Shown here: one piece after another, positions 3,105 to 62,264 of the stretch
Position numbering within the stretch: the stretch's first letter is position 1
Layout: every line of letters starts with the position of its first letter
Origin: a virus
Taxonomy: Duplodnaviria > Caudoviricetes
DNA: 62,264 nt
Strand: one strand, 5' to 3'
IMG/VR virus record: IMGVR_UViG_3300050011_000078
Coordinates: 1 to 62,264 of that record
Notes under the pieces: generated by a model
The model's database searches: none
The model's input: the letters and a program-made list of their open reading frames with translations, nothing else
What the model was told of the DNA's origin: nothing
Program-made: the position numbers and the translations under genes

Positions 3105-3878
3105 GTGAACGATATTCCGTTTCATCCGCTCTCGGAAATTTTCCCGCTAATCGAAGGTGCGGACTTCGATGCGTTGCGCGACGACATCGCAAAAAACGGT
3201 GTGTTGGAGCCTATCGTTCTAATGGACGGCCAAATCATTGACGGGCGCAACAGATATCTTGCAGCGCTTGCCGCTGACGTCGAATGCCCAACCACGATTT
3301 ACGAAGGAAACGATCCGCTCGGACTCGTCATTTCGCTGAATCTCAAGCGGCGGCATTTGAGCGAGTCGCAGCGCGCAATGGTGGCGTCGGCGCTGGCGAA
3401 TATGAAGTCTGGTGAAAGAACAGACCTACCCTCAATTGAGGGAAGGTCAATATCGCAGGGTGATGCGGCGAAACTCTTGAATGTTGGTGTTGCTTCTGTT
3501 GAGCGCGCCGCCAACGTCCGCGCCAACGGCACAGCCGAGCTAATCAGCGCCGTGCAACAAGGTCGGCTTGCCGTAAGCGAAGCCGCCAAAATGTCCAAAG
3601 CGGCGCCGGAAGTTCAGCGCGCCATCGTCGCCAAGGTGAATGCTGGCGTGAAACCCATGGAGGCGGCTAGGCAGGTCACAGCGGCAGTGAAGGCGGAACG
3701 CAGGGTAGCGCTTCCAGACGGCAAATACCGCATCCTCTATGCCGACCCGCCGTGGTCCTATGGAAACACTCAGCCGGACTATCACACCGAGCAGCGAGAC
3801 CACTATACAATCAAAACGTTCTATCTGAGCCTAGAGTTTGTCAAAAATCACGCCATCAAATGCTTGGACGCAACATGA
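3105..3878 (+). CDS. ParB-like N-terminal domain fused to a truncated MT-A70-type methyltransferase
   Basis: HPLSEIFPL..IIDGRNRY..SLNLKRRHL; KYRILYADPPWSY, then the ORF ends about 40 aa later. Confidence 0.75.
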   Translation: MNDIPFHPLSEIFPLIEGADFDALRDDIAKNGVLEPIVLMDGQIIDGRNRYLAALAADVECPTTIYEGNDPLGLVISLNLKRRHLSESQRAMVASALANMKSGERTDLPSIEGRSISQGDAAKLLNVGVASVERAANVRANGTAELISAVQQGRLAVSEAAKMSKAAPEVQRAIVAKVNAGVKPMEAARQVTAAVKAERRVALPDGKYRILYADPPWSYGNTQPDYHTEQRDHYTIKTFYLSLEFVKNHAIKCLDAT

Positions 3879-35444: not shown

Positions 35445-35921
35445 ATGGCTATTACGTCCGGCGCCTATTCATTTCTCGACGTGCAATGCACGTTTAGCGG
35501 GCCGGGCGGCTCGTTCGACATCGCGAGCGGCCAGGTCAGTGATGACGCCATTCATATCGCGATGGACGGCCCGAAGAACACCAAGACCATTGGTGCGAAC
35601 GGCGCCGGCATGCACTCGCTGCACGCTTCGAGGGGCGGCAAAATTACGGTCAATCTGCTGAAGACCGCCGGCGGGAATGCCATGTTGAATCAAATCTACA
35701 ATTATCAACAGACATCGTCGGCCTATTGGGGCCAAAACATCATGACGGTCACCAACAACATCACGGGCGACGCCATCGTGGCGACGAACGGCGCGTTTGT
35801 GAAACAATCGGACCTCGGATATCATACCGAAGGCGGCACGAACGTCTGGGAATTCGACTTCATAGAGATCGATGAAGTCCTCGGCAACGGTCTTAATCCG
35901 ACCGGGCTGGTCATGCCGTGA
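35445..35921 (+). CDS. tail tube protein (DUF3277-like)
   Basis: YSFLDV....GPGG..IGA.G.GMHSLHA...GKITV.LLKT. Confidence 0.85.
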   Translation: MAITSGAYSFLDVQCTFSGPGGSFDIASGQVSDDAIHIAMDGPKNTKTIGANGAGMHSLHASRGGKITVNLLKTAGGNAMLNQIYNYQQTSSAYWGQNIMTVTNNITGDAIVATNGAFVKQSDLGYHTEGGTNVWEFDFIEIDEVLGNGLNPTGLVMP

Positions 35922-48286: not shown

Positions 48287-48955
48287 ATGCCGAATACAAA
48301 CGACTATCAGCCATGGGCGGCACAAGTGGGCGCCAACGTTCTTGCGCCTGCGGTTTACGCCGCCCTTCCAGAGCTCCCGGCGGGTTTTGTGGCTGGCATC
48401 ACGCCATCGGTGAAGATAAACACCATCTTGCGGCAGGCGTCGGTCATCGCCGCAATGATCGCACAGTTCACGGCAGACTATGGGCCGGCGAACGTCGTCG
48501 ACGACGGCAATATTGCGGAAGTCGAAGGAAACTTCGGCTCGGCGATTGCCGCCTATCTCGCGACAAAGCCGCCTTCGAATCAAGAAATCGTCCTCCAGGC
48601 GAAGGGCGTCAACCTCAATGCGACCGGCGACACGATCGTCGCTGTCGCACTTCCTGCCGGCTTCACCCGCTACACCATTGTGGGTATCAACGTCAGCCAC
48701 GCTTCGGTGTCTCTGACAACGGCGCACGTCGGCCTCTTCACCGCCGCGTCACAAGGCGGCACGGCGATTGCGGCCGAACAGGCTCTCTCCGGAATCACAG
48801 CGACGGCGGCCGCGACCGCGGCGAACGGAATCGCGCTGGCTCTCGCCCTTAGCAATATCTGGCTGAGTGGCGCGAGCCTGTTCCTGAACGTCGGGACGGC
48901 CCAAGGCGCCGCCGCTACTGCGGATTTCGCAATCCGAATCCTTCCCCTTTCGTAA
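48287..48955 (+). CDS. tail fibre-like protein 1
   Basis: GANV..GF..G....NT.LRQAS..A.MIAQF baseplate-anchor N-terminus. Confidence 0.75.
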   Translation: MPNTNDYQPWAAQVGANVLAPAVYAALPELPAGFVAGITPSVKINTILRQASVIAAMIAQFTADYGPANVVDDGNIAEVEGNFGSAIAAYLATKPPSNQEIVLQAKGVNLNATGDTIVAVALPAGFTRYTIVGINVSHASVSLTTAHVGLFTAASQGGTAIAAEQALSGITATAAATAANGIALALALSNIWLSGASLFLNVGTAQGAAATADFAIRILPLS

Positions 48956-57241: not shown

Positions 57242-57306
57242 GAAGTTTCCAGATTTTCAGGACAAATGCAATACCGGAACGAATTTTCACGTCCAGGAAC
57301 GAATTT

Positions 57307-57738
57307 TCACGCTTTCTTGGCTGGCTTCACGTCCTTAAACATCGGCCGGCGCGGCGGCAGGCTATCCAGCTTCGAGGGGCGCCGGGCGCGGTCGATCGCC
57401 TTTTGCGTCTTGGCGAAGTCGGCGCCTTTAAGCTCGGCCTTGGGGCGCGTGGCTCCGACGTGGGCTGCTTCCAAGCGCTTCGCACGCGCGATTGCGCTTG
57501 TATCGCCTGGCGTCTTGTCAGCATGGCACAATCGGCAGATGGCGCGGCAGTTCGAAAACGTCGCCTTCCCACCTAGGCCGTCCGCAATCTCATGATCGAA
57601 ATGCACACGGCCCTTGACGAGAGTGGCGTTGCAACGTGTCTTCGTGCCGTCCTCGCGGGTTACGTCGGCTTCGCATTTGAATTCTGCGAAATTCAGGCGC
57701 TTGACGCGGACGGCGGCCGAGAACTCTGTGCGGCTCAT
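57307..57738 (-). CDS. HNH endonuclease-like protein
   Basis: CE..C..FDH....GLGG..T..NC..IC..CH..KT. Confidence 0.8.
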   Translation of the reverse strand: MSRTEFSAAVRVKRLNFAEFKCEADVTREDGTKTRCNATLVKGRVHFDHEIADGLGGKATFSNCRAICRLCHADKTPGDTSAIARAKRLEAAHVGATRPKAELKGADFAKTQKAIDRARRPSKLDSLPPRRPMFKDVKPAKKA

Positions 57739-58106
57739 GCGCGTGCCGCCTTGTTGTGCTTATCCCGCAACACAAATCTGCGAAGCAATCCGAACCAAAG
57801 GCCGCGCGCTTCGTCTGGCGCTCGCTCTCGTGCGCCTTGGACTGCATCGCGCATTTGCTCATCCATATCGCCGTGCATCCAACAAAAACACGGCGTATTG
57901 TTCTTAACCCACGTTCTCAAATCAACGCAGCGCTCACACGTATGGACCGAAGAAGCGCTCCCATCCCATATTGCGAACAGCGCTTCATATCGTTCGCCCG
58001 GCGTGATTATACCGCCGCACTCGTAACAGCGATGCAGCTTACGAGCCCGGACGATCTTCGGGCGGTAGACAGAGGGAGGATCGTAGTCACAATAGCAATC
58101 GGTCAA
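57735..58106 (-). CDS. Cys-rich hypothetical protein
   Basis: ARK.HRC.ECG..I.PGERY..TCERC. Confidence 0.7.
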   Translation of the reverse strand: MTDCYCDYDPPSVYRPKIVRARKLHRCYECGGIITPGERYEALFAIWDGSASSVHTCERCVDLRTWVKNNTPCFCWMHGDMDEQMRDAVQGARERAPDEARGLWFGLLRRFVLRDKHNKAARA

Positions 58107-58300
58107 CGCGCCCTCTTTTCGTCCGTTGCGGCGTCGTGCCAAGTGAACGCGAGCTGACCCTCAGCGGTTATTGCATCGTCGCTCAACCCGCAGCCGTCGC
58201 AGGCCGGACATTCGATGCAAAACACTTCCTTTCCGCGGCGGTCGTGGATTGGATAGAGCCCAAGCCCTTCGCAGACATTGCATTTGTCATCGTCTTTCAT
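58103..58300 (-). CDS. small DnaJ-type zinc-finger protein
   Basis: CNVCEGLG..CPACDGCG. Confidence 0.65.
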   Translation of the reverse strand: MKDDDKCNVCEGLGLYPIHDRRGKEVFCIECPACDGCGLSDDAITAEGQLAFTWHDAATDEKRAR

Positions 58301-58608
58301 GCGTGGGCCACCTTTTCGAGAAGCGCCAATCCTGGGAAAGCGCGGACGACACAGTGAATGCTTTCCTTGAAATCGCCGCGCCGCGCATTCCACTCAGCCT
58401 CCTCGACTAAGCGATCTTGCTCGGCAATCACTCGCATTTTTGCGTCATGATGGGACAAGATATTCATGCTACGATCGGTCGGCGCCTTTTTGCGCTCGCG
58501 CAACGCTTCGCGTTCGGCAATCGTGATTATGTCGCGGTACTGCAATTCGTCGATCATGTCGCGAGTTGAAAATTCGGAAATATCGACCTCGATTTTGACT
58601 GTTCTCAT
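58297..58608 (-). CDS. hypothetical protein
   Basis: VKIEVDISEFST..MIDEL..R; coupled. Confidence 0.65.
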   Translation of the reverse strand: MRTVKIEVDISEFSTRDMIDELQYRDIITIAEREALRERKKAPTDRSMNILSHHDAKMRVIAEQDRLVEEAEWNARRGDFKESIHCVVRAFPGLALLEKVAHA

Positions 58609-58925
58609 GCTGATTTTCCTGCCTCCCGCTCCAGCGCATCGGAAACCTTGCATTTGTCATCGTCTTCCATTGCTCTCACTCCGTTGGATAAAAATTCGTT
58701 GCGGGGCGTTGCGAAGCGTCGCGGCGCGAGGCGTGCGGCAATCACTCGCATTTTTGCGTCATGATGGGACAAGATATTCATGCTACGATCGGTCGGCGCC
58801 TTTTCGCGCCCGCTCAACGCTTCGCGTTCGGCAATCGTGATTATGCCGCGGTATTGCAATTCGCCGATCATGGCGCGAGTGGAAAATTCAGCAATATCGA
58901 CTTCGACTTTTATGCTCTCACTCAT
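58605..58925 (-). pseudogene. partial duplicate of 58297-58608 with chimeric C-terminus
   Basis: 58736-58909 is nearly identical to 58422-58595. Confidence 0.65.
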
Positions 58926-59174
58926 TTGATAAAAAATCGTTGCGTTGCGTAGCGTCGTAGGGGGAATGCCACGAAGGTCGATCAACCCAACTGATCTTGG
59001 CGATGCCGGGCTTTGGCCTGGGCACAGTCTCATGAGCGCTCGGGTATTGCCGGCGCAGAATGGTGGATTTCTGCACGTCTTCGTTAGATTTAACGCCTTT
59101 CTTACTCTGCATCATTTTCCATTCTCCTATATTTCACTCCGTTGGATAAAGAATGTCTCTCTTGCAAACTGGAT

Positions 59175-59436
59175 TGTAGCGAGGCGGCCCATCGACCGTC
59201 CGGGTTGCACCAAATTCACGGAGCCGTCTCGCTACAAACTGGATCGGGAGTGATGGCCCACCAAGACCGCGGCGTGCATTTTCCCCTTGGAGCCATCACT
59301 CCCAAACTGGTGGATTGGAGGGGGACGGGCCAAGCGCCGGCTGGACTGTCACCTTAGGGTCGGACCAGTCCCTCTCCAAACTTGTGGCGGCGCCCAATTC
59401 CAGCGCGGGGTTCATGCTGCATTTGGAGCGCCGCCA
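59175..59436 (-). ncRNA. TIGR-like stem-loop guide array, 4 units (59385-59436, 59316-59378, 59246-59303, 59175-59236)
   Basis: Each unit: stem-CC[A/G]-9nt-TG..CC[A/G]-9nt-TG-stem; ATCCAGTT-type linkers. Confidence 0.85.
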
Positions 59437-60318
59437 TTCGGACCAAAGGTCCGAAACCAAAGCCTTCGTCATAATCCGCAGCGCGTCCATGCGCGCGTGT
59501 GCGGGTTTCCAATCTGGGTGCGCGATGGCCGTCGCTTGCCTGCGGGCAATGTAGACATCGCCATAAGGCCCTTTCGGTCCTCCGTATTCGGTCCCAGACT
59601 TTTCCTTGCTCGTGAGCTGATGCTTGGACATGGGATCGGCGATGCAAGCGTGAATTTCAGCGCGTCGGGGCGGCTTGTATCCCGCGTCTGTCCATTCTTC
59701 CGCGGTTAGTCCGCCATTCATGCGCCATGTGGAATAGGCTTTGCCCTCATAGGGAGCAAGGCCGAGCCGTTTCCAAAGCATCTTGTGGTGAGGGTAGTTC
59801 GATAGGTTCCCTGATTCCGCGATAAGGACGGCGAGGCCGAGTGGTCCGAAACCCGCAACGCCGTCCGCCCATTCCGCTACCGGGAGAGAGCGCGTGAGCT
59901 TTTTCATTTCGCGTTCGATTTCCTCACGACGAATTTCGATGGGCGCGATAGACTTTCGAAAAACAGCCATATCGAGATCTATTGCCAGAGCGATTTCTGC
60001 ATCTTCTTCTTTAACCGGTTTTCCCTTTAGCAGAGCGGCCACAATGCTTTTAGCGCGCTTCTTTATCTCATCCCGGTCTTGCTCGCTCGCATCCGCAGCG
60101 AATCCGCAAATGCGTCGAGCATACGCGCCGGCCGCATTCGTGAGCTTGTTAGCGGCGTTGATATAAAGCTTCCGGCGCCGGCCGTGCAACATCATCGTCT
60201 CGCATACGGCTTGCAGATTGGAGGCCTCGACCGTGGAGACAGCTCCATTTTGGATTGCATCGATCAATTGGTCAGAACGGTCGAGGCTTTGGGTGGAACT
60301 TTGCATATCATGCGTCAT
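59296..60318 (-). CDS. nuclease-less IS110/Nop-domain protein (TasA-like RNA-guided DNA-binding protein)
   Basis: Coiled coil, then V.GFGPLGLAVLIAESG.L.NY.....LWKRLGLAP..Y..Y..RR..HA..DA.R.M.K.L..DLW..W; no DEDD/RuvC N-terminus; adjacent guide-like array. Confidence 0.8.
   Translation of the reverse strand: MTHDMQSSTQSLDRSDQLIDAIQNGAVSTVEASNLQAVCETMMLHGRRRKLYINAANKLTNAAGAYARRICGFAADASEQDRDEIKKRAKSIVAALLKGKPVKEEDAEIALAIDLDMAVFRKSIAPIEIRREEIEREMKKLTRSLPVAEWADGVAGFGPLGLAVLIAESGNLSNYPHHKMLWKRLGLAPYEGKAYSTWRMNGGLTAEEWTDAGYKPPRRAEIHACIADPMSKHQLTSKEKSGTEYGGPKGPYGDVYIARRQATAIAHPDWKPAHARMDALRIMTKALVSDLWSEWRRSKCSMNPALELGAATSLERDWSDPKVTVQPALGPSPSNPPVWE
60224..60287 (-). ncRNA. TIGR-like stem-loop unit inside the 5' end of the Tas-like CDS
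   Basis: GCCTCGACCGT..CCA-ATTGATCGA-TGCAATCCA-AAATGGAGC-TG..ACGGTCGAGGC. Confidence 0.75.
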
Positions 60319-61036
60319 TGGCGATCCTCTCGGCTTTCTGAGCCATGCGTTGAAATTTCTTTGGGCTGATGCAGTCGCCGACGCGCGCGTCCGGATAGCT
60401 CGGGACAACACGCTTGAGCTGTTTCAGAACCGCCCCCTCATAGGCGCCTTCCCTGACCCGGAGAATTGACGAGGCAACCTTGCTATCGTTTTCCTTGATC
60501 AGGAGAGGCAGCGCGGAACATTTGATATCTGCCCACCGGGTGCCGTTGCGCATCTTCACTCTGTCGAAGACGCTCGGCCCGGACATGGCCTGCGCGTTCC
60601 TGACTATTGTCAGGAATGATTTTGGGGAAGAGGAGAGGCCGTCTGGATTGGAAGGGGATGGCCCATTTCCGAAGCGGCTTTCCAAGGGATCGTCGGCGCC
60701 GTCCCCTTCCAAATTTTCGGCGCGGGCAAAGAAACCATGGTTTTCACCCACTGACTGGCCCGCGCCGCCGGGCTCGCCCGGAACTGCTATCACCAGCCTG
60801 TGCGGCATCTCGCGCCAGACCAACATGAGATAATCAACCGCCGCCGCATGGATCGCGTCTGCTTTCAGATTGAGCAGCGCAATCAGCATCCCAGAACTAG
60901 CGAAGGTATTCATGAATTGCGGCATTGCGTTCTCGACGCTGCCGTTTCGGCTCAGCGCATTGTATGCTGCCGCGTAAAGGCGCGATCGGTCGGCTAGCGA
61001 GCCTTCCGACGATAGTTTTTCTGCGATCATTCTCAT
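60308..61036 (-). CDS. unknown partner protein coupled to the Tas-like gene
   Basis: ATGA-coupled start; stop overlaps the Tas-like start; low-complexity linker encoded by two guide-like units. Confidence 0.7.
   Translation of the reverse strand: MRMIAEKLSSEGSLADRSRLYAAAYNALSRNGSVENAMPQFMNTFASSGMLIALLNLKADAIHAAAVDYLMLVWREMPHRLVIAVPGEPGGAGQSVGENHGFFARAENLEGDGADDPLESRFGNGPSPSNPDGLSSSPKSFLTIVRNAQAMSGPSVFDRVKMRNGTRWADIKCSALPLLIKENDSKVASSILRVREGAYEGAVLKQLKRVVPSYPDARVGDCISPKKFQRMAQKAERIANDA
60648..60767 (-). ncRNA. two TIGR-like stem-loop units inside the partner CDS (60718-60767, 60648-60712)
   Basis: CCA-GTCAGTGGG-TGAAAACCA-TGGTTTCTT-TG and CCG-ACGATCCCT-TGGAAAGCCG-CTTCGGAAA-TG, each closed by a stem. 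Confidence 0.8.
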
Positions 61037-61548
61037 GCGGCCTCCATGGCGTTCTTTTCGAGTTGGGCAGGCGTAACGTCGATAAGGCCGGCGACATAAG
61101 CGAGAACAGACTCTTTCGATTTGGCGAAGTCCTCTTTGCCCATGGCCCGGTATTTCTGGGACTTGGCCGTGAAGACCCGAACGACGCTTTCGCTCGCCGT
61201 CACAAGCGCGAAATCGTCCATCGGCTTGATAAAGGCGGCGACTCGCATTGCCTCCGCCTTCGACGCGCAGACGATCGACCGTTCGTCGCAAAATCCTTCC
61301 TTGATGAGTGCATACTTTCTGAGGTGCTCGACGGACGGGAACCGCTCGACAAGGTCATCGGGGAAGTTCTTCCAGGCGTCTGTGAGGCAAGCAAAATAAT
61401 GCGAATGGCTTACGGCGGATCTTTCTTCGAGCACGTCCAGCACATAGCGCTGCCCGATCACGAACTGCGCCGCGCAATAGTTGTGGAACCGCTTTAGAGG
61501 CTCGAATTCAGAGCCGTTCCAGACTCCAAAGATTGGTCCGGCCGCCAT
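61033..61548 (-). CDS. NinB/Orf-like recombination-region protein
   Basis: ERS..SH.HYFA.L..AW.N.P..EHLRK.ALI..G..SQ....MG..DF..SK. Confidence 0.6.
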   Translation of the reverse strand: MAAGPIFGVWNGSEFEPLKRFHNYCAAQFVIGQRYVLDVLEERSAVSHSHYFACLTDAWKNFPDDLVERFPSVEHLRKYALIKEGFCDERSIVCASKAEAMRVAAFIKPMDDFALVTASESVVRVFTAKSQKYRAMGKEDFAKSKESVLAYVAGLIDVTPAQLEKNAMEAA

Positions 61549-61550
61549 AG

Positions 61551-61736
61551 TCAACCCTCGTCCATTTCGAGCTGTTCGGGCTCGTATTCGATCGTGCCGC
61601 CGCCGCCGCAATACGGGCAACGCTCGTTTGTATCGTTCGCATAATCAGCGTCGTCTTCGACATAGACGTGCCACCAGCCGGTGCCCTTGCAGGCCTCGCA
61701 GCACATGAAGGCGATCGGCGGCTCGCAAAGCATCAC
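61551..61736 (-). CDS. small zinc-finger protein
   Basis: CEACKGTG..CPYCGGGG. Confidence 0.6.
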   Translation of the reverse strand: MMLCEPPIAFMCCEACKGTGWWHVYVEDDADYANDTNERCPYCGGGGTIEYEPEQLEMDEG

Positions 61737-61909
61737 GCTGCCCTCGTTGGCGGCGCGGCGCGAAGTAACTCGACGCTGGCGCGCAGTTGCGACATAAGCG
61801 TATCGCGCGGCGGCGTGGAGCCATACTTCGCGGTCAGATCAGCGACAGTTTCCTCCAGCTCCGTTAGAAACTGGCGCACTTCCCTTTCGCACTCGATTAT
61901 CTCAGTCAT
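61733..61909 (-). pseudogene. probable C-terminal fragment of a YqaJ/lambda-exonuclease gene
   Basis: I.ECEREVRQFL.ELEETVADL resembles the terminal helix of YqaJ-type exonucleases. Confidence 0.45.
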
Positions 61910-62264
61910 TGGCCCAAGCCCTCAAAGCTTCCTCAAGCTCGGCGACGCGCCTAGCAAATTCAACAAGTGCTTCGAGATAAAAGACGCCGCCCGGCAATTG
62001 ATGCTCTCCTTCGGCGTCGGCTTCATAAAGGACAGCCACGCCGTTCGACGGGATTTCTAGTCTGAATGGACCCGCGGACACTGAGGTCACACCATCTCGG
62101 GGGGCATATTCATCGCCGGGAAACACGTCGTTCAAGCCGCCGGCGATCAGCTTCTCGGCGGCGTCGACGGGGATAAGCCGGCGTCCGCCAACCACGACGC
62201 TCGGCAATTTGCCGTCGCGCATGAGCTGATAGGCATTCGAGCGACTAATCCCGTAGGACTGACA
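61902..62264 (-). CDS. excisionase-type HTH_17 protein with C-terminal extension (5' end outside the window)
   Basis: CQSYGISRSNAYQLMRDGKLPSVVVGGRRLIP. Confidence 0.65.
   Translation of the reverse strand, partial: CQSYGISRSNAYQLMRDGKLPSVVVGGRRLIPVDAAEKLIAGGLNDVFPGDEYAPRDGVTSVSAGPFRLEIPSNGVAVLYEADAEGEHQLPGGVFYLEALVEFARRVAELEEALRAWAND

Follow-up and report, generated by a model that had tools for sequence, protein, structure and literature searches.

Guide-type stem-loop units lie in frame inside tas and inside its operon neighbour at a probable TasA-type TIGR-Tas locus of a peat-soil phage

The DNA analysed here is the whole contig of a tailed phage from peat soil (Caudoviricetes; IMG/VR record IMGVR_UViG_3300050011_000078), 62,264 bp in length and referred to below as the window. 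Besides virion genes (terminase, portal, protease, tail sheath, tape measure and baseplate) it carries, near its right end, the leftward early operon, in which a NinB-like gene is followed in minus-strand order by a gene outside known families, which we call the partner, and then by tas, the gene for a predicted Tas protein of the TasA type. The upstream gene (61033–61620, minus strand; phrog_15346, E 2.8e-53, weakly NinB/Orf-like) ends in a stop codon that overlaps the start (ATGA) of the partner open reading frame (ORF; 60308–61036, minus strand, 242 amino acids). The tas gene (59296–60318, minus strand, 340 amino acids, with its stop codon at 59296–59298) in turn starts so as to overlap the partner stop by 11 nucleotides (nt). 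Such overlapping stop and start codons at both junctions indicate one operon. The tas start is most likely the ATG at 60318 and not the GTG at 60411, because the former is preceded at 7 nt by an AGAGGA ribosome-binding site, overlaps the partner stop and gives the protein an N-terminus, MTH(D/E)..QSSTQSLD, that it has in common with its closest homologue. Upstream of the operon the sole match to a sigma-70-like promoter is found at 61896–61925 on the minus strand; it is weak evidence, with one promoter-like site in 58900–62264 as compared to a mean of 1.2 in shuffled sequence.

Along this operon, between 59174 and 60767, we find seven stem-loop units, all on the minus strand, each consisting of a variable stem around CCR-N9-TG, a loop of 4–5 nt and a second CCR-N9-TG. 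Published stem-loop guides of TIGR systems (tigRNAs) are described as having two spacers of 8–12 nt, box C (CCA and variants) and box D (UG), and variable palindromic stems (Faure et al., 2025, PMC12045711; Xu et al., 2026, bioRxiv 10.64898/2026.09.09.750476). In the window the CCR-N9-TG motif is present in 14 of 14 half-units and the flanking stems contain 9–14 Watson–Crick pairs per unit. In the direction of transcription, U1 (60718–60767; 9-bp stem, spacers GTCAGTGGG and TGGTTTCTT) and U2 (60648–60712) lie in the linker of the partner, U3 (60224–60287) in the N-terminal extension of Tas, U4 (59385–59436) over the end of the Tas core, U5 (59315–59379) in the C-terminal tail, U6 (59246–59303) across the tas stop codon and U7 (59174–59237), the last of the array, between genes. 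Translation of the region confirms the positions given in an earlier note on this DNA, which had placed five units wholly within ORFs and a sixth over the tas stop; U7 is intergenic. All seven fold into a terminal stem, with z-scores against dinucleotide shuffles from −1.9 to −5.6 (−2.69, −2.45, −3.40, −5.64, −1.89, −4.44 and −3.96 for U1 to U7). Matches to the motif together with a stem of at least 9 pairs number seven in the window, while 40 sequences simulated with a first-order Markov model gave 0.175 on average. Two further minus-strand matches to the motif (48770–48819 and 35794–35844), which have 7–8 pairs, were discarded as chance, the simulations giving a mean of 0.3 per window at 8 pairs or more. 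A CRISPR array was considered and rejected: the stems differ between units, the repeat families are short and partial, and Rfam gave no match in 58000–62264 at E up to 1. The stems of U5 and U2 are nearly identical (59311–59332 and 60644–60665) and are read in the same codon phase, giving GPSPSNP in both proteins, which suggests the copying of one unit from the partner linker to the tas tail or in the opposite direction.

The assignment of the 340-residue product rests on several profile matches. The NCBIfam model NF052498 (TIGR_Tas_endo, 'TIGR-Tas system RNA-guided endonuclease') is matched with E 1.5e-15 over profile positions 14–215 of 215, PF02371, the C-terminal RNA-binding domain of IS110 proteins, is found in 18 of 25 family members, and a profile of the family matches the TasR structure 9MTY with E 2.7e-4. 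Neither HNH or RuvC nor any other nuclease family was detected in Pfam and NCBIfam scans, and only 35 residues precede the core; the lack of a nuclease domain points to the TasA type. Judged by its sequence, the protein is a nuclease-less Tas protein of this type. An IS110 transposase was rejected, as PF01548 is absent from the 25 members and NF033542 is matched only over positions 121–263 of 343, with 29 bits as compared to a cut-off of 140. At E up to 0.001 we recovered 207 Tas relatives, with lengths of 206–563 amino acids among the homologues listed. The conserved core spans residues about 36–297 (60213–59428), and both the N and the C ends are hypervariable. Among GenBank phages, a tblastn search returned one weak match only, in Rhizobium phage RHph_X2_25 (30% identity).

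The partner is made of an N domain (60803–61036; hidden Markov model (HMM) E 4.2e-26) and a C domain (60314–60595; HMM E 7.0e-31) in the same minus-strand ORF, joined by a linker (about 60596–60802) that contains U1 and U2. It was this linker that the earlier note had described as Gly/Pro-rich and encoded by two units, and this stands: U1 and U2 correspond to partner residues about 90–130, including the quoted peptide GGAGQSVGEN...GPSPSN. A library of 1.84 billion representative proteins holds 12 homologues of 200–311 amino acids; for 10 of them the match is split into two segments, and both the N and the C domain can be seen in the alignment. The family has no match in PHROGs, NCBIfam or the ESM Atlas and none among PDB sequences below E 0.65; a Pfam scan of the 12 homologues gave nothing beyond one chance-level match to a domain of unknown function, and a PHROG scan of 28 gave none. 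We compared the locus with related ones, 68 of them viral, 11 genomic and 2 metagenomic. When the domain HMMs were run against all stop-to-stop ORFs of these loci, the N and C domains were in one ORF and in one frame at 18 of the 18 loci where both were found. In the 15 distinct loci with usable domain envelopes the linker, holding 0–5 units each time, is free of stops in the partner frame in all 15, as opposed to 2 and 2 of 15 in the other two frames. Between 1 and 5 units lie inside the partner ORF in 36 of the 49 distinct loci in which such an ORF was detected.

A similar picture emerges at the 5′ end of tas. As the earlier note had claimed for the N-terminal extension, U3 encodes Tas residues, about 11–32, and it lies inside the tas coding sequence whether translation starts at 60318 or at 60411. 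Between the partner stop codon and the Tas core, 26 distinct loci have at least one unit, and in all 26 the tas frame runs through this gap without a stop; the other two frames do so in only 6 and 1 of them. A tas-frame start codon is found at most 13 nt from the partner stop in at least 28 of the 35 loci listed, and in this phage the sequence from U3 to the conserved Cys-40 region offers no canonical start codon. The possibility that the true starts leave the units out, which the note had named as one that would overturn its view, thus does not hold at the tas 5′ extension. At the other end of the gene, 24 distinct loci share a conserved unit that overlaps the end of the Tas core and has the codons for W-R-R as its 5′ stem arm, followed at once by box C; the recurring P-A-A or P-A-S is encoded by the 3′ arm because this arm is complementary to the W-R-R arm. 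Units are also seen inside the Tas core in sixteen loci, though the window has none; among them are L023 (for example 3208–3267), L025–L029, L032, L033, L040, L065 and L074–L078. They sit mostly about 80 codons after the core start and in one codon phase (15 of 15 distinct), a position that suggests the tip of a coiled coil rather than the wedge loop reported for TasA of B. longum (Xu et al., 2026).

The units follow the strand of tas throughout the family: a strict scan of the first 79 loci found 201 units, every one of them on the tas strand, and a relaxed scan of the 79 loci plus the window stretch found 322 there against 10 on the opposite strand. The stems are not a by-product of the motif, since among distinct core matches taken without any stem requirement at least 9 pairs are formed in 93 of 200, as compared to 9 of 200 after the 3′ flanks were shuffled. 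At least one unit is present in 67 of 72 distinct loci, and the 293 distinct units divide into 190 embedded and 103 outside, a few that straddle the core start being wrongly labelled 'outside' by the scanner. Peptides encoded by units contain 50% G/S/P/D/E/N/Q and 16% hydrophobic residues, the corresponding figures for the Tas core being 33% and 30%; this composition fits linkers that may tolerate any sequence.

The most informative comparison is with the closest relative (L080; 70% protein identity), where the scan recognises orthologues of U1–U5 and U7 and the alignment shows a counterpart of U6. Over the six orthologous unit pairs the spacers are identical at 28 of 108 positions (26%, which is the chance level), while all other unit positions agree at 203 of 252 (81%): stems, boxes and linkers are kept, every spacer is different, and the embedded units behave in the same way as the intergenic U7. 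The orthologue of U3, for example, has the same outer stem and different spacers, and the stem of U2 shows two compensatory double changes. In this relative two blocks, of 111 and 75 nt, extend the partner linker in frame, and two additional units can be recognised in them. The alignment of homologues that the earlier note had proposed as a check thus gives whole-unit variation with the frame kept, with 0–5 units per linker and in-frame insertions of 111 and 75 nt. With its spacer turnover on a conserved framework, this comparison indicates that the embedded units behave as guides. Since, across the family, neither the linker nor the tas 5′ extension loses its open frame when units change in number and spacers are replaced, ribosomes must read through the units to make the domains that follow. 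A second case of turnover confined to spacers is provided by L010, L012 and L015, whose 3′-end units have identical stems, near-identical loops and different spacers; they are related to L069 and L071, the two partner–tas copies in the genome of Pannonibacter tanglangensis.

The codon phase of the units is also not random. With box C at codon position 1, a half-unit contains a stop in 25–26% of cases, as compared to 5.6–8.1% in the other two phases, because in this phase three free codons are followed by TGN. Only 5 of the 190 embedded units are in the position-1 phase, while openness alone predicts about 20% (78 of 390 open unit-phases), so the avoidance of this phase exceeds what the stops present today would produce. 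We infer selection for the phases that best protect the protein against disruption by spacer turnover, keeping in mind that the units are not independent samples.

Taken whole, these data are, in our judgement, very probably best explained by a stem-loop TIGR-Tas locus of the TasA type in which the units are embedded and translated and the transcript would double as guide precursor. The opposite view, that the units are ordinary non-coding elements of an array and that the ORFs have been over-called, would have the partner as two genes, tas starting after U3 and the open frames as an accident of base composition. Some observations do favour it. At the 56–64% G+C of the window long chance ORFs are common; the units are intrinsically poor in stops, 82–84% being open in two of the three phases whether they are embedded or not; and in this phage an internal Met (ATG) precedes the C domain of the partner with AGGA 11 nt upstream, so that separate initiation is conceivable here. 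For the C-terminal tail of tas this view is essentially right. Here the earlier note stands in one part, as U4 and U5 do encode the tail that follows SDLWSEW, and falls in another, as the tail beyond the core is not kept open: in 70 loci its median length is 21 amino acids in the tas frame as compared to 37.5 and 17.5 off frame, and the 3′ unit itself contains the stop in 2 of 24 loci. Selection for an open tail was rejected on these grounds, the tas-frame tail being no longer than the off-frame ones, and the frame data mean that U4 is a conserved overlap and that the continuation of the frame through U5 into U6 is accidental in this phage, where U5 is translated only for want of a stop after U4. 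Elsewhere, however, over-calling conflicts with the 18 of 18 loci that have both partner domains in one ORF and frame, with the uniformly open linkers, with the 26 of 26 open tas frames and with the lack of a canonical start codon after U3. The internal Met is present in only 5 of 12 partner homologues, as counted from the alignment, and no homologue of 30–132 amino acids, as expected for split forms, was found in a word-based search of limited reach. From the shared ORF, the stop-free linkers, the non-conserved Met and the lack of short homologues it follows that the partner, as far as its gene allows this to be read, is a single protein with a linker built from guide units, and not the two genes that the note had also considered. 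As an account of the locus we find over-calling extremely unlikely. It is also very unlikely that the intragenic units are decayed relics and that only U6 and U7 are functional as guides, given that the embedded units keep perfect boxes and stems, replace their spacers completely on a conserved framework just as the intergenic U7 does, and are the majority class in the family.

A more serious alternative accepts that the units are embedded and translated but supposes that the guides come from separate short transcripts or from another RNA pool, so that embedding would be mere genome compaction without any coupling. The Discussion of the September 2026 preprint makes the point that sequence alone does not tell co-transcription from internal promoters (Xu et al., 2026), and stem-loop Tas proteins are described as being without the processing dyad of the dual-repeat systems, so Tas-dependent cleavage is not an established step. 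On the other hand, a weak consensus scan of 58900–62264 detected no sigma-70-like promoter match on the minus strand between 61896 and the array and no terminator-like site on that strand, and the overlapping stop and start codons indicate one operon. We regard separate transcripts as unlikely, though as an alternative to be taken seriously. Several further observations weigh against the reading that we prefer, that of embedded, translated units whose transcript doubles as guide precursor. With 57.8 bits, the NF052498 match falls short of its curated cut-off, which is 100, and the single-sequence match to TasH (E 0.34) is not significant. A search of the phage for targets of the seven spacer pairs, in both arrangements and with gaps of 0–3, gave 5 matches at 3 mismatches, within the 0–6 of shuffled spacers. 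All three non-Watson–Crick pairs in the stems of the window are A–C on the gene strand and hence G–U on the opposite strand, and in the pooled 168 distinct units the gene strand has G–U 51 times and A–C 35 times, only a modest bias. An RNA from the opposite strand was nevertheless rejected, on the motif orientation of 201 against 0 and on these same pooled counts. Finally, the loci are related to each other and our counts are of distinct sequences rather than independent events, so that they overstate the independent support.

In the mechanism that we propose, the operon transcript would be both message and guide precursor, which is consistent with the strand and the layout of the units. Cutting of this RNA at U3 would separate the tas start from the core, cutting at U4 would remove the tas stop, and cutting at U1 or U2 would cost the partner its second domain. 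Since cutting at the units would destroy the message, guide maturation and protein synthesis would compete. If binding by Tas promotes or stabilises processing, the result would be negative feedback on both Tas and the partner. By analogy with published TasA proteins, the mature complex may bind DNA and repress transcription rather than cut. Only tentatively, and with the odds somewhat against it in our own estimate, do we join all these elements into one picture, in which the partner linker and the Tas N-terminal extension would together form a translated region of guide cassettes, the codon phases would limit stops, and each transcript would be either translated or cut.

Several other features are found around the array. 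A 25-nt element occurs three times (58671–58695, 58913–58937 and 59129–59153; copies 76–80% alike). Read along the minus strand, each copy is closely followed by the ribosome-binding site of a small ORF located directly after the array, and the element could be a shared operator or leader. A direct repeat of 175 nt (58422–58596 and 58736–58910, 93% identity) yields two paralogous small minus-strand ORFs, 58297–58653 and 58605–59033. Further on, a perfect 16-nt tandem direct repeat (57276–57291 and 57296–57311, 20-nt spacing) lies at the 3′ end of the minus-strand ORF 57307–57738, which by eye has an HNH-like Cys/His pattern. Four other metagenome runs, from peat or permafrost and from different studies, have contigs with fragments of 59100–61100 without a single difference, so this phage, or one very closely related to it, seems to be recurrent in samples of this kind; the fragments from the four runs are all identical, and therefore no gain or loss of units between strains is visible in them.

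How does the locus compare with known systems? The stem-loop TIGR-Tas systems of the TasA type, as they are described in the published texts, share with it a Nop-domain protein without nuclease, carriage by phages and N-terminal extensions of varying length (disordered in the published proteins), as well as tandemly arranged units in which each of two 9-nt spacers is bounded by box C (CCA or CCG) and box D (TG) within variable palindromic stems, and which are found upstream, downstream and inside tas and on the tas strand. Stem-loop arrays on both sides of tas were reported in the first of these (Faure et al., 2025). There are differences: the loop between half-units is 4–5 nt here as opposed to a mode of 9 nt in the preprint, the CUU motif at the stem base is absent and the linkers share TCCAGTTTG instead, and part of the array is inside a second gene. 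The preprint (Xu et al., 2026) presents intragenic stem-loop tigRNAs in tas, the sequencing of small RNAs for the TasA of B. longum, and TasA-mediated repression; there, as here, units are in the coding sequence of the effector with its frame unbroken, in segments described as disordered. The published B. longum unit, however, maps to the wedge loop, while in our locus the units occupy both ends of tas (at the 3′ end over the W-R-R codons) and the partner linker. The same preprint raises the link between maturation and translation for tas, and since it states the embedding in tas, this headline is already in print for the effector gene. The operons of TasParB and TasA (Faure et al., 2025) also combine a conserved accessory gene with tasA and have arrays around and between the genes; those arrays are nevertheless of the dual-repeat kind and lie upstream, downstream or between the genes as described there, not inside them, whereas here part of the array is inside the partner. 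The partner itself was rejected as a TasParB, since Pfam detects no ParB-like domain among its 12 homologues. With the bridge-RNA recombinases of IS110 the Tas core shares the C-terminal RNA-binding domain (PF02371), but it has no DEDD/RuvC domain and is accompanied by many short units instead of one bridge RNA. For units inside a second, conserved, non-Tas gene we found no report. The text of the preprint contains none of the terms 'neighbor', 'accessory' and 'upstream gene'; its figures, supplements and TIGRSafari annotations may already cover this clade. The embedding in the neighbouring gene is thus apparently new.

Guide arrays are normally treated as non-coding, yet most units of this phage clade of TIGR-TasA systems (190 of 293 distinct) are in reading frames. 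This has consequences for annotation: searches made between genes will miss such arrays, and gene callers will report hypervariable 'disordered' tails and linkers that are really constrained by RNA. The turnover of spacers only, within coding sequence, and the bias in codon phase bear on how TIGR arrays gain and change their spacers. The case of the partner gene points to a second protein tied to the system and offers a natural test bed for competition between maturation and translation. If the picture of translated cassettes proposed above is true, every spacer replacement would rewrite a stretch of two proteins, the ratio of protein to guide would have a built-in setting, and partner expression would report the state of the array.

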